DNA of 64,000 nt. Source: Leucoraja erinacea (taxonomy: Eukaryota). Below, in pieces: positions 7,995 through 37,948 of the stretch. The notes beneath the pieces are model-generated. The model searched no databases. It had not been told where the DNA came from and worked only from the letters and a program-made list of their open reading frames with translations. A program made the translations under genes and the position numbers. Where the stretch lies: contig NC_073378.1 of NCBI RefSeq assembly GCF_028641065.1, positions 138,632,001 through 138,696,000 on the forward strand. The letters are read 5' to 3'. Numbering within the stretch: position 1 is the stretch's first letter; each line of letters starts with the position of its first letter.

Positions 7995-8660
7995 TCCAAT
8001 GTTGTATAGACTTTGGCTCAGTTCCTGTGGACTGGAGTGCAGCTTAAGTAACCCCACTTTTTAAGAAGGAGAGAGAGAGCAAATGGGGAATTATATAAAA
8101 TCAATCCTGACATCGGTAGCGGGGAAGATGCTTGAGTGAATTATTAAAGATGTAATAGCAACGCATTCGGAAAACAGTGACAGGATCGATCAAAGTCAGC
8201 ATGGATTTAAAAGGGGAAAATATGCTTGACTAATTTATTGAGGATATAACACGCAGAATGTACAAGGGAGAGACAGTGGATGTGGTATATCTGGATTTAA
8301 AAAAAACGCCTTTGCAAAGTCCCACACACGAGGTTAGCGTGCAAAAGTTGAGCACGTGGTATTGCGAGTAAGGTATTGATATGGCTAGATAACAGGTTGG
8401 CAGAGAACACGCAAAGAGTAGAGTTTAACGGGTCCTTTTCGGAATGGCAGGCAGTGGGGTTACGCAAGGTTCAGTGCTGAGACCCACTTTATTTACAATA
8501 TATATTGACGACTTAGACGAAGGAATTAAATGTCACATCTCGAAGTATGCGGATGACAAAAAGCTGGGTGGCAGTTTGAGATACCAGGAAGATGCTATGG
8601 GGATGCACGGTGACTTGGATAGGTTCAGTTGGTGGGCAGATGTATGACAGATGATGATTA
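7995..8660 (+). mobile_element. CR1 RT fragment (repeated in each tandem copy near 11470, 14930, 23170, 26630, 30070, 33530 and 36990)
   Basis: SGVTQGSVLRPTLFTIYIDDLDEGIKCHISKYADD remnant. Confidence 0.82.
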
Positions 8661-8725
8661 AAAAAATGCTTTCTTTTGCGTAGTGATCGAGATAGAGGAG
8701 TCTCACTTTCAAACATCTCTTTCAG

Positions 8726-9072
8726 CTGTGGGACCGTTGTTTCCGTTGCTTTGACGACAATTATCTTCAATTGTGATGGATTCATCGGTCGATATGTGAA
8801 CATTTTCTTGCCGGGACAGGATAAAATCTTGACCTTGTGCGAGGTTGAGGTCTTTACTTCAATACTTCCTACCATCGATACCTTGTTAAAACCGAAGCCG
8901 TATCCCCCTTCCGCACACGAAAGGGAAAAGCTAACCACCACCAATACCCCTTCACTAAAGGGAACGAAACAGCCGCCTTCATTTGGAAAAGAAACGACGC
9001 CCCAGTCAACAAAGGGAACGAAAATACCGTCCATACCTGGAACGACTATCCAGCCAAGAACCGGAAAAAAAG
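8726..9072 (+). CDS. FTLD 3 exon B with long linker
   Basis: tttcag|C TGT GGG...AAA AAA G|gtacgt, 347 nt in frame; 3' end assumes the upstream donor. Confidence 0.82.
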
Positions 9073-9284
9073 GTACGTTGCTATTGGGAGCGAATCTACC
9101 ATTGGGAACGGGGGAACAGGTAGACTCATCGCTTCGCCAAGACGTGGAGACATTCTCAGCAACAAAATATATCAGCCACTGGTACAATTTCCGGACGGAG
9201 GTAATCATGTTAGACCGAGATTTAGTCCCTTCCGGCTAAAACACAGCCCCCTCGTCTCTTTCTCAATGGCATGACATCTTATTC

Positions 9285-9850
9285 TGAATCTGTGCCCTCT
9301 GGTCCTAGATTCCCCCACAACTGGGAACGTGCTCTCTACATTCACACTATCCAAGCCTTTCAATGTCCGATAAGATTCAATGAGATCCCCAATAATCCAT
9401 TACTACTCCAGCGAATACAGGGCCCGGAACAGTCAGTGGGTCTCCATATGTTACCGTAATCATCCCAGCGATCACTCTCGTAATCCCCCACTGGACCCTC
9501 CACAATGCCAGCACATCTCAGATATGGGGCCGAAAACTGTTCACAATATTACAAATGCGCGCTGCCCAGTGCCTTTTACCCCCCTGCTTTAACATTCTAT
9601 CTCTCTGGATATAAATGCAAAGAATGAATTTGCCTTTCTTAACACCGGTTCAACTTGCAAATAAACATATTGGGAATCCAGCGCCAGCACTCCCAAGTCC
9701 ATTTGCACACCCGATTTCTGAATCACAAATGTGCCCTTCCTGAACAGAGCACTCGTCCTTGATGAGTACCCTGTTCCTGCTTTTTCCCCCAATATCCCTT
9801 GAATCCGTTATACCCGAGAGCTATAGCTTACTTTCACTTAAATGCATCTT
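9285..9850 (-). mobile_element. Old CR1 3' fragments in the B-A intron (present in each tandem copy)
   Basis: QMDLGVL..VYLQVE..RKANSFFAFISR remnant and [16 protein letters not shown] 3' end. Confidence 0.65.
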
Positions 9851-34236: not shown

Positions 34237-34583
34237 CTGTGGGACCGTTGTTTCCGTTGCTTTGACGACAATTATCTTCAATTGTGATGGATTCATCGGT
34301 CGATATGTGAACATTTTCTTGCCGGGACAGGATAAAATCTTGACCTTGTGCGAGGTTGAGGTCTTTACTTCAATACTTCCTACCATCGATACCTTGTTAA
34401 AACCGAAGCCGTATCCCCCTTCCGCACACGAAAGGGAAAAGCTAACCACCACCAATACCCCTTCACTAAAGGGAAAGAAACAGCCGCCTTCATTTGGAAA
34501 GGAAACGACGCCCCAGTCAACAAAGGGAACGAAAATACCGTCCATACCTGGAACGACTATCCAGCCAAGAACCGGAAAAAAAG
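34237..34583 (+). CDS. FTLD 9 exon B with long linker
   Basis: 347 nt, AG/GT boundaries, open frame. Confidence 0.83.
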
Positions 34584-35395
34584 GTACGTTGCTATTGGGA
34601 GCGAATCTACCATTGGGAACTGGAACAGGTAGACTCATCGCTTCGCCAAGACGTGGAGACATTCTCAGCCACAAAATATATCAGCCACTGATATAATTTC
34701 CGGACGGAGGGAATCATGTTAGACCGAGATTTAGTCCCTTCCGGCTAAAACACATCCCCCCTCGTCTCTTTCTCAATGGCATGACATCTTATTCTGAATC
34801 TGTGCCCTCTGGTCCTAGATTCCCCCACAACTGGGAACGTGCTCTCTACATTCACACTATCCAAGCCTTTCAATGTCCGATAAGATTCAATGAGATCCCC
34901 AATAATCCATTACTACTCCAGCGAATACAGGGCCCGGAACAGTCAGTGGGTCTCCATATGTTACCGTAATCATCCCAGCGATCACTCTCGTAATCCCCCA
35001 CTGGACCCTCCACAATGCCAGCACATCTCAGATATGGGGCCGAAAACTGTTCACAATATTACAAATGCGCGCTGCCCAGTGCCTTTTACCCCCCTGCTTT
35101 AACATTCTAGCTCTCTGGAAATAAATGCAAAGAATGAATTTGCCTTTCTTAACACCGGTTCAACTTGCAAATAAACATATTAGGAATCCAGCACCAGCAC
35201 TCCCAAGTCCATTTGCACACCCGATTTCTGAATCACAAATATGCCCTTTCTGAACAGAGCACTCGTCCTTGATGAGTACCCTGTTCCTGCTTTTCCCCCC
35301 AATATCCCTTGAATCCGTTATACCTGAGAGCTATAGCTTACTTTCACTTAAATGCATCTTGCCTTTCGGCTCAGTGAGATGTTCCCTCTCCACAG

Positions 35396-35675
35396 AAAAC
35401 GTGGCGTGGGGAGCAAGTCCGACCCAGTCCAGCACGGAAGAAGGGGCAGGCGCTGAAGGAGCCATTGACAGTAACAGCGACAGCGACTTCTGGAAAGGTT
35501 CATGCGCGCGCACCAGGAAATCCAAGGACCCTTGGTGGAGAGTCGATCTAAAAGAAAGCTATTACGTGACAGATGTAAGAATCACCAACAGAGCAGACTG
35601 CTGCTCGGACCAGCTCCTAGGAGCAGAGCTCCGCATCGGGGACTCGCTGGAAAACGATGGCAATTCCAACAGACT
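35396..35675 (+). CDS. FTLD 10 exon A (AIDSN variant of the cation-binding motif)
   Basis: 280 nt, AG/GT boundaries; GAC AGT AAC replaces GAC GGG AAC. Confidence 0.88.
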
Positions 35676-37948
35676 GTAAGTGTTCTTAAGCAATCGCCGA
35701 CTCAAGTCACAAGCGTTGACTTCTTCTGAAATTTTCGCTGTTACTGGAGCAATGGTAATATCAGTGGGAAAAAGATAGTTGCTGCAGGATAACAATGATC
35801 TCACTGCACATCAAATTAAAATTATTCTCCGCTGATCCATGGAAACATTGAAACCTAGAAAATAGGTGCAGGAGAAGACCATTCGCCCCTTCGAGCTTGC
35901 ACAGCCATTCGTTGTGATCATGACTGATCGTCCCCTATCAATAGCTCGTGTCTACCTTCTCCCCCTAGATTCCACTGGCCCCTAGAGCTCTATCTAAGTC
36001 CAGATGCGAGAGAAAATGATTCAGAGCCGTAGTCCAGTTATCCAATGACACGAGCCTTTATCGCACCTCAATAGCAGTGGGGTCATAGAAACATAGAAAC
36101 ATAGAAAATAGGTGCAGGAGGAGGCCATTCGGCCCTTAGAGCCAGCACCACCATTCATTGTGATCATGGCTGATCGTCCGCTATCAATCACCCGTGCCTG
36201 CCTTCTCCACATATCCCTTGACTACACTAGCCCCCAGAGCTCCACCTAACGTTCTCTTAAATCCATCCAGTGATTTGGCCTCCACTGCGCTCTGTGGCAG
36301 GGAATTCCATCAATTCACAACTCTCTGGGTGAAAACGTGTTTTCCCACTTCCGTCTTGAATTACCTCCCCTTTATTCTAAGATTGTGGCCCCTGGTTCTA
36401 GACTCGCCCAACATTGGGAACAGTTTCGCTGCATCTAGCTAGCCCAGTCCTTTTAGAACTTTATATGTTTCTATATGATCCCTCTCCTCCTCCTAAATTC
36501 CACTGAATACAAGCCTAATCATTTTAATCTTTCCTCGCATGACAGTCCCGCCTTGCCAGGGATCAATCTCGTGAACCTATGCTGCACAGCCTCAATCACA
36601 AGGATGTCCTTCCTCAAATTAGGAGACCAAAACTGCACACAATACCCCAGATGTGGTCTCACCAGAGCCCTATTGAATTGGAGAAGAACCTCTTTTCACC
36701 TATACTGAAATCCTCTTGTTATGAAAGCCAACATTCCATTAGCGTTCTTCACTGCCTGCTGTACTTGCACGCCAACTTTCAGTGCCCGGTGTACAAGGAC
36801 GCCCAGATCTTGCTACACCTCCCCCTCAATGAAAGGAGATGCATAAATCTATAATTTAAGTTAATTCAAGTTATGTAATGATGAACAATCGGATTGCGGT
36901 GGCAATAGTGAGGTAATCAATGCCCATGAGTAAGGATCATGCAACATCTAGCCAGTCAATGCGGCCAACGTGCAGGAATGAACTACAGGATCAGTTCATG
37001 TGGACTGGCGTGCAGCTAATGTAACCCTACTTTTTAAGAAAGGATGCTGAGAGAAAACTGGGAATTATAGTCCACTTGTCTTGACATCGGTAATGGGAAG
37101 ATGCTTGAGTCGATTATTATAAATGTAATAGCAGCGCATTTGGAAACCAGTGACAGGATCAGTCAAAGTTCAAATTATGTTTGAATAGTCTTCTGGATTT
37201 TTGAGAATATAACATGGAGGATGTATAAGGGGAAGACAGTGGACGTGGTGTATGTGGATATTCAAATAGCATTTACCTAGGTCTCACTTAAGTGATTAGT
37301 GTATAAAATTAGAGCTAATCGTATTGGCAGTAGGGTATTGACATGGATCGGAAACTGGTTTGCAGACAGCATGCAAGGAGTAGAAATTAACGGGTCATTT
37401 AAGAAAGGCAAGATGTGGCTAGTGGGGTTCCGCAAGGCTCAGTGCTGAGACTCCTGTTATTTGTAATATATATTAACGATTTAGACGAAGGAATTAAATG
37501 TTACATTTCCAGGTTTCCGGATTACATAAAGCTGGGGGAAAGTGTGAGCTTCCAGGAGGATGGTTTGAGTCCTCAGGGTGACTTGAATATGTCGAGTGAG
37601 TGGGCAAATGCATGACAGATGCAGTTTAATGTGGATCAATGTGAGGTTATCCACTGTCATGGTAAGAACAAAAATGCAGATTATTATCGGAACGGTGTGA
37701 GAACAAGAAACGGGAATGTGCCACGAGACATCCGTGTCCTTGTGCATCAGTCATTGAAAGTAAGCATCCGGGTACTGCAGGCAGCGAAGAAAAGACATGG
37801 CAGTGAGGAGGATGCCGGAGTAGCCATGGGAGCCCACTACATGCCATGCACATGTCATCAGTTCACCAGCACAGGCCTACTATAACAAACGCACTCTCTT
37901 CCGTAGTGATCGAGGTAGCGGAGTCTCACTTTTAATCATCTCTTTCAG

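Follow-up and report, generated by a model that had tools for sequence, protein, structure and literature searches.

A probable founding junction, resolved to 11 bp inside an inherited CR1 relic, in a seven-unit array of F-type-lectin-like exons in the skate Leucoraja erinacea

In the human LPA gene two exons encode each kringle; the KIV-2 repeat has an exon 2 identical to that of the upstream KIV-1, and KIV-2B an exon 1 identical to that of the downstream KIV-3, as set out in passages of PMC11201333 and PMC4378929. A comparable layout is found in the window analyzed here, a 64,000-nucleotide stretch of the skate Leucoraja erinacea (contig NC_073378.1, positions 138,632,001 to 138,696,000), which is an array of F-type-lectin-like domains with 15 domains in the window alone. 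As in KIV-2 as those passages describe it, the skate B exon derives from the upstream flank and the A exon from the downstream flank, so that the repeating unit is out of register with the two-exon domain. Both units also span several kilobases and come as mosaic subtypes. The skate array differs in its domain, its lineage, and its unit size (3.45 kb versus 5.5 kb in LPA), and copy-number polymorphism, which is established for LPA, is only hinted at in the skate. No base-level founding junction for KIV-2 is given in those passages, and the word "breakpoint" does not occur in PMC4378929.

Two further kinds of rearrangement bear comparison. Rearrangements mediated by transposable elements (TEs), whether Alu–Alu or LINE–LINE (LINE, long interspersed nuclear element), are described in sections of PMC9675761 as leaving a chimeric element at the junction, with short microhomology in sequence of about 80% similarity, and the skate junction shares these features. 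For human junctions of the homologous TE-mediated kind, the same sections give a median of 17 bp of microhomology and a similarity of 82.6%, and they report higher-order amplifications flanked by homologous TEs. In those cases dispersed TE copies supply the homology, whereas the skate locus holds one insertion that was duplicated with its host unit inside a wider homology; human LINE-1 events also have a median similarity of 93.5%, compared with 75-80% in the skate. The primate amylase locus (PMC13374492), where a first, TE-associated instability was followed by non-allelic homologous recombination (NAHR), resembles the skate array in having a founding event and then an expansion between near-identical units. 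Amylase, however, involves whole-gene duplications with lineage-specific long terminal repeat insertions, whereas the skate case concerns a sub-genic exon block carrying an inherited relic.

Among F-type lectins themselves, tandem arrays, domain duplication and shuffling, and intron-split domains have been described, including in skate (PMC5712786, in part). Tandem domains are shared with striped bass FBP32, eel AAA, the multi-domain forms of Xenopus, and oyster bindins; the skate locus departs from these in holding 15 domains in the window and in the replacement of the fucose-triad histidine by arginine. A literature search in which most subscription journals were outside coverage and supplements were not included returned no publication on this locus, which is probably undescribed; its results included one proteomics paper on shark skin.

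Each domain is divided between exon A, of 280 bp, and exon B, which encodes the last strands and the linker, with an intron between them. Exon A matches the Pfam families F5_F8_type_C and F5_F8_type_C_2 and aligns with the solved lectins FBP32 (E = 3.7e-44) and eel AAA (E = 2e-21); exon B aligns with FBP32 at E = 1.8e-18. Judged by this similarity to solved F-type folds together with the Pfam F5_F8_type_C match, the predicted products are F-type lectin domains. A protein search on the locus yielded 26 proteins out of 112 candidates. Among RefSeq models of Leucoraja erinacea, five are 100% identical to window exons; one of these, P0018, is the hybrid A4+B4, and the annotation breaks the array into several short models. 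The exon order in the amplified region is A3-[B3-A10]x7-B10, a result that supports the proposal of the initial annotation, made from the sequence before this analysis, that an ancestral A3-B3-A10-B10 arrangement had amplified B3+A10. The duplicated block therefore joins the back half (B) of one domain to the front half (A) of the next.

The junction created by this duplication can be read at the level of single bases. The 11-bp sequence TGACATC(G/C)GTA occurs exactly at 8108, 11565 (the C variant), 15024, 23262, 26718, 30163, 33620, and 37082, with an additional exact copy at 4291 in intron 2. With up to one mismatch allowed, the window contains 13 matches, compared with 1.24 expected by chance. 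The two edge copies had been placed at 8108-8118 and 37082-37092, and both are exact. Successive spacings are 3457, 3459, 8238, 3456, 3445, 3457, and 3462; removal of a 4,785-bp insertion from the 8238 interval leaves a mean unit of (28,974 - 4,785)/7 = 3,455.6 bp, which reproduces the earlier estimate of seven units of about 3,455 bp.

Diagnostic sites were defined as substitutions separating intron 3 from intron 10, in an alignment that took in introns 2-10. To the left of the 11-mer (8015-8107), the six internal introns are of intron-10 type at 22-23 of 23 such sites. To the right (8119-8520), they agree with intron 3 at 94-97 of 103 sites, the remainder agreeing with intron 10 (2-6 sites) or with neither (3-4 sites). 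The identity switch is present in six of six internal introns, with intron-10 sequence on the left and intron-3 sequence on the right as first reported. Its final intron-10 site touches the 5' end of the 11-mer and its initial intron-3 site touches the 3' end. The switch is thus abrupt and confines the crossover interval to exactly the 11-mer; it is neither gradual nor located elsewhere, and it falls within the CR1 piece to which the exchange had been assigned. The 11-mer is no special motif. It encodes LTSV within a conserved 13-residue reverse-transcriptase (RT) stretch, which accounts for its survival in several copies, and near-copies occur in unrelated CR1 copies at 18516 and 55493. The initial annotation called this site the breakpoint of the seven-copy expansion, a description that holds for the first duplication, from one copy to two, and fails for the later steps, which crossed over elsewhere.

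Two further exchanges with intron 2 were considered and rejected. One is a second template switch immediately to the right of the junction: here the internal copies agree with intron 2 only at private changes of intron 3, and they follow intron 3 at the other differences between introns 2 and 3. The other, in which intron 2 would have converted units 3-7 at 8261-8390, fails on the same diagnostic pattern, with a match to intron 3 elsewhere.

The CR1 pieces in introns 2, 3, and 10 descend from a single event. Their 5' CR1/host junction is common to introns 2 and 3, their 3' junction is common to introns 2 and 10, and in an unrooted tree of seven rows they form one clade (support 100/99) relative to four independent CR1 copies in the window; the shared junctions are stronger evidence than the tree. 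Together, these observations indicate one old insertion that was copied as the domain unit duplicated. The relics are 72-75% identical to the RT region of the full-length CR1 in unit 3. Domains 3 and 10 are colinear over 2,538 aligned columns, with host homology on both sides of the CR1 piece, which makes up 647 columns (25%) and is among the least similar blocks, at 75%. Exact runs of at least 11 bp number 40 in this homology, six of them inside CR1. Since CR1 accounts for about 25% of the unit homology, a crossover landing there needs no special cause: an exchange anywhere in the A-B intron would have produced these hybrids as well, and a random position falls in CR1 one time in four. The element at the breakpoint therefore looks like a passenger rather than a cause; a local bias is possible, but nothing requires it. 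With respect to TE-mediated rearrangement, the junction does lie in a TE at homologous positions, a chimeric element is rebuilt there, and the microhomology is short (11 bp), whereas the homology was not supplied by independent TE insertions. As a separate observation, about 130 bp of host sequence, normally found ahead of exon B, occurs in copies on either side of the relic (4077-4200, 7894-8015, and 4990-5130), which indicates that the old CR1 insertion came with an unusually long duplication.

A second sign of exchange between domains 3 and 10 lies outside the element. A3 and A10 differ at 32 of 174 exon positions upstream of 7129 and at 9 of 270 positions in 7129-7398, the latter including 6 of 164 intron bases (Fisher p = 1.4e-7, with the boundary picked after inspection of the data); identity returns to about 80% past approximately 7440. 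The stretch 7129-7417 is probably a gene-conversion tract between A3 and A10, judging from this local excess of identity, and it looks roughly as old as the founding duplication. The residue pattern GAELRIG is already common to the A3 and A10 of Amblyraja. Domains 4-9 had been described as chimeras with an A10-type N-terminal half. They do combine an A10-type exon with a B3-type exon, but the N-terminal half is not cleanly of A10 type, as the 3' part of A3 is itself 97% identical to A10. The position of the tract outside CR1 indicates that whole units pair.

These data bear on whether the array was seeded by the retroelement, as the initial annotation proposed, with CR1 having caused or targeted the event by acting as an independent source of homology or as a break-prone or recombination-prone site. 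The junction does fall within CR1 sequence, where a conserved stretch codes for RT, and introns 2 and 3 are 97% identical over 80 columns around the same spot, which could reflect another exchange. The element is nevertheless a single inherited insertion rather than a set of separately inserted copies supplying homology, it constitutes about a quarter of the unit homology, it is exceeded in similarity by other blocks, and the A3/A10 tract lies elsewhere. Seeding by CR1 is not supported and is considered distinctly unlikely.

As a whole, the locus is best explained by an inherited CR1 passenger, a homeologous exchange between domains 3 and 10 within 11 bp, and later ordinary expansion, an account that is held with considerable confidence. 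In this sequence of events, an old CR1 piece entered the A-B intron of one F-type domain unit, and the CR1-bearing unit later duplicated to give domains 2, 3, and 10, which drifted apart to a DNA identity of about 75-85%. Domains 3 and 10, neighbors at that time, may then have mispaired in register along their whole homeologous length; the geometry of this step is visible in the sequence, and its mechanism is a proposal. Strand exchange would have been resolved in the 11-bp identical run of the shared CR1, duplicating B3+A10 and producing the first A10/B3 hybrid. Classical NAHR requires perfect identity over more than 100 bp, and annealing or template-switch pathways are favored for TE junctions, according to passages of PMC9675761. 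The founding junction offers 11 bp. With so short a perfect match in DNA that is about 80% identical, a template switch or annealing guided by homeology is the preferred founding pathway over classical NAHR of long identity. From there, the 3.45-kb units probably rose to seven by unequal exchange and conversion at scattered positions, a step for which the mosaic is observed and the order is proposed. All six junctions are the same because later exchanges would copy the founding junction unchanged. Insertion of the young CR1 in unit 3 would have come last.

A two-step origin would begin with a larger tandem duplication of domains 3 and 10, followed by a deletion of the annealing type that joined intron 10 to the intron 3 downstream of it and removed B10 and A3. 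The product would be identical in sequence, and short microhomology in repeats of about 80% similarity is described as typical of single-strand-annealing deletions in the relevant section of PMC9675761. This route requires an extra event whose own junction has been erased, and the window contains no A3-B3-A10-B10-A3 remnant, which leaves it very unlikely relative to the direct exchange between domains 3 and 10.

The seven units are mosaics produced by recombination among copies. They differ pairwise by 0.67-2.49%, each carries private changes (3-37 singleton columns), and the four-gamete test on 52 informative sites finds 509 of 1,326 pairs incompatible. An expansion of fewer real copies by mis-assembly, toward which the read depth of a second sample suggesting fewer than seven copies and the lack of a spanning long read might point, is scarcely credible for units that differ to this extent and include one with a unique 4.8-kb LINE and its target duplication. 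The edges are the most diverged parts of the array: of the 30 private substitutions of unit 7, 24 fall in some 840 bp at its right end, the native left part of intron 10, where the unit differs from the other units by 2.7-3.7%, and the first 300 bp of unit 1 differ from the others by 3.3-7%. Two local patterns stand beside this. In the region of 8261-8405, units 1-2 and units 3-7 differ by 6-7% over 300 bp, far above the unit average, and this stretch is possibly the oldest unconverted part of the array. A 10-bp deletion common to units 3 and 5 (about 23018-23027 and 29919-29928) and absent from unit 4 hints at a two-unit step or at conversion.

Comparison with other samples suggests, by a depth proxy, that the block is amplified in a second sample of the same species, perhaps in fewer copies, and single-copy in two relatives. 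Read contigs from 4 of 24 listed runs were placed on 33620-40100, and the depth ratio was taken as the word depth of locus-like contigs in the amplified part divided by that in the single-copy flank, excluding bins over the 3' half of exon A, where paralogous A exons pile up. For run X11, two contigs at 39380-39973 were excluded (depth 56 and 61; 8-9% different and possibly paralogous), and their inclusion brings the ratio to about 1.2. Run X5, which has the same species label and comes from another study, shows word depths of 14-28 in four contigs of the amplified part and 6.3-8.0 in four flank contigs, while the ratios for two further organisms are 0.81-0.94 (organism B) and 1.03-1.04 (organism C). 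At position 36845, X5 carries the allele of units 1-6, and organisms B and C carry that of unit 7. Amblyraja models run A1-B1-A2-B2-A3 and then show just one A10-like domain ahead of A11. Over three single-copy contigs, 40 of 1,864 bases (2.1%) separate organism B from the window. The contig of organism B over 33769-34387 has 19 differences from unit 7 (the letters are mostly undisplayed), and over the same stretch units 1, 2, and 4 differ from unit 7 at 13, 19, and 2 positions. The founding event may be about as old as the split between the window and organism B, may have used a divergent allele, or organism B may have collapsed to one copy. Separately, the Rhinoraja model P0001 has nine F-type domains, including a run of similar ones related to window domains 12-13 that is possibly an independent expansion of another unit.

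At the protein level, the amplified block is bounded by two phase-2 introns, so the reading frame is kept, and use of the proximal donor leaves domains 1-3 and 5-10 in frame. In B3-type exons a pair of candidate donors is separated by 45 bp (9072 and 9119, with equivalents in B5-B9). Both are in frame in B5-B9, which would allow short and long linkers, whereas in B3 only the proximal one is in frame. RefSeq model P0018 ends in the frame shifted by the extra base at 12530. Of 48 core residues, 12 differ between B3 and B10, and the linker differs as well. Aligned to AAA, exon A covers residues 30-105 and exon B residues 112-150, which places the sugar triad and the h2DGx motif in exon A (residue roles as given in part of PMC5712786). 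Both B types retain the cross-exon cysteines and the GRYV and LCEVE strands. The hybrids should accordingly fold and keep the A10 pocket, as far as sequence can indicate, and their likely effect would be more copies of one pocket, with changes in valency and spacing, rather than a new pocket. The cation motif h2DGx reads AIDGN in domains 4-9, and domain 10 deviates with AIDSN.

The fucose triad has the form His...RXD...R/K in the motif description of PMC5712786. None of the skate domains conforms: the histidine is replaced by arginine in all 15, and the final arginine by glutamine in domains 2-13, including the amplified ones, giving Arg-Arg-Gln in domains 2-13, Arg-Arg-His in domain 14, and Arg-Arg-Arg in domains 1 and 15. 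This non-canonical pattern is also common in Amblyraja and Rhinoraja models, and across skate domains, including those of P0001-P0005 and P0007, the histidine is replaced, mostly by arginine. The substitutions suggest F-type lectins with a shifted ligand in this lineage, and fucose binding by the array pocket cannot be assumed.

Several observations weigh against the account given here. The minimum of 14 recombination events (Rm) that supports the mosaic comes from seven sequences and is inflated by recurrent mutation. The X5 depth ratio of 2.0-4.0 falls below the 4.7-6.3 expected for seven copies, and summed word depth is a proxy, not a copy number. Among the contigs listed none bridges the 11-mer, so the junction is directly seen only in this assembly. 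The Amblyraja models have no B3 coverage, and the B exon after their A10 is B10-like at 5 of 12 diagnostic residues versus 4 for B3. Edge divergence (3-7%) is at least as large as the 2.1% separating the window from organism B, and an order in which the split preceded the duplication is not established. The extra base at 12530 breaks the frame of B4 at both candidate donors and is either a real lesion or an assembly error. One bulk RNA run, of which about 5% was read, gave no reads in six bins over B9, A10, and B10, and a long hybrid protein and its expression are predictions.

Table 1. Coordinates of the junction, array units, and associated features in the window.
Feature	Position	Strand	Remarks
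11-bp identity, left array edge	8108..8118	+	native intron 3 on both sides
11-bp identity, right array edge	37082..37092	+	native intron 10 on both sides
Exon A3	6955..7234	+	first 92 codons (N-terminal) of F-type domain 3; left flank native
Exon B10	37949..38382	+	C-terminal strands and Pro/Thr-rich linker; native right flank
Unit 1	8119..11575	+	intron-3 right part, B3 8726-9072, intron, A4 9886-10165, intron-10-type left part, junction 11565-11575
Unit 2	11576..15034	+	B4 from 12184, A5 13345-13624, junction 15024-15034; extra base 12530, both candidate donors out of frame
Unit 3	15035..23272	+	B5 from 15646, A6 16805-17084, LINE insertion, junction 23262-23272
Unit 4	23273..26728	+	B6 from 23881, A7 25040-25319, junction 26718-26728
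Unit 5	26729..30173	+	B7 from 27336, A8 28495-28774, junction 30163-30173
Unit 6	30174..33630	+	B8 from 30782, A9 31941-32220, junction 33620-33630
Unit 7	33631..37092	+	B9 from 34237, A10 35396-35675, native intron-10 left part
Conversion tract, A3 vs A10 type (probable)	7129..7417	+	runs into intron
CR1 RT relic, intron 2	4198..4986	+	same insertion as introns 3 and 10; holds 11-mer at 4291
CR1 RT relic, intron 3	8007..8661	+	3' part lost in deletion of about 255 bp
CR1 RT relic, intron 10	36989..37802	+	5' flank lost in deletion of about 370 bp; intron 2 has the same 3' junction
Near-full-length CR1-group LINE	17132..21911	-	unit 3 only; 5-bp target duplication

The young CR1 of unit 3 is distinct from the old relics. 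Its 4,785-bp insertion consists of a 4,780-bp element and one 5-bp target copy. CR1-group elements are generally marked by an apurinic/apyrimidinic endonuclease (APE) and RT in open reading frame 2 (ORF2), an esterase-type ORF1, and a short tandem 3' tail, features that are all present in this full-length copy. The element is nearly intact, with a GDSL-esterase ORF1 and an APE+RT ORF2 that lies in two frames, one of 822 residues for APE+RT. Partial copies at 2615, 40213, and 41976 are about 89-90% identical to it, which suggests recent CR1 activity. The 5' end (21388-21912) contains 6.6 tandem monomers of 80 bp, possibly a monomer-type promoter, and a 16-bp repeat lies at 21233-21301.

Other parts of the window contain decayed copies and elements. 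At 43724-44445, a degenerate duplicated intron and a broken B exon lie between A11 and its true partner at 47741, and model P0010 splices across this stretch. A decayed domain unit at 53230-53997, with exons A and B mostly deleted, adjoins a 51-bp C run. A distinct decayed non-LTR element with endonuclease-like and RT-like text follows the last B exon at 60270-62340.

A more far-reaching version of the account combines two claims: that a single mispairing of units diverged by 20-25% left both the A3/A10 tract and, about 0.7 kb downstream of it, the 11-bp crossover, and that the array is a segregating, translated copy-number polymorphism multiplying a skate-specific Arg-Arg-Gln pocket on a new C-terminal half and mucin-like stalk. 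As a conjunction this is rather unlikely; if true, it would constitute a KIV-2-like system in which the founding junction is readable to the base and the un-amplified state survives in relatives. The probable account, that of an inherited CR1 passenger and a homeologous exchange followed by ordinary expansion, offers a clean record, resolved to the base, of the way in which a domain repeat begins, through an exchange between old, diverged paralogous units and subsequent amplification, in a setting where relatives seem to retain the single-copy state. It also provides a caution that a breakpoint inside a transposon is not equivalent to seeding by that transposon, as the element may duplicate along with its host unit. 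The array adds an example of a known mode of growth for repeat genes and introduces no new mechanism. If the locus is expressed and polymorphic, it would represent a lectin-valency variant in a model skate.

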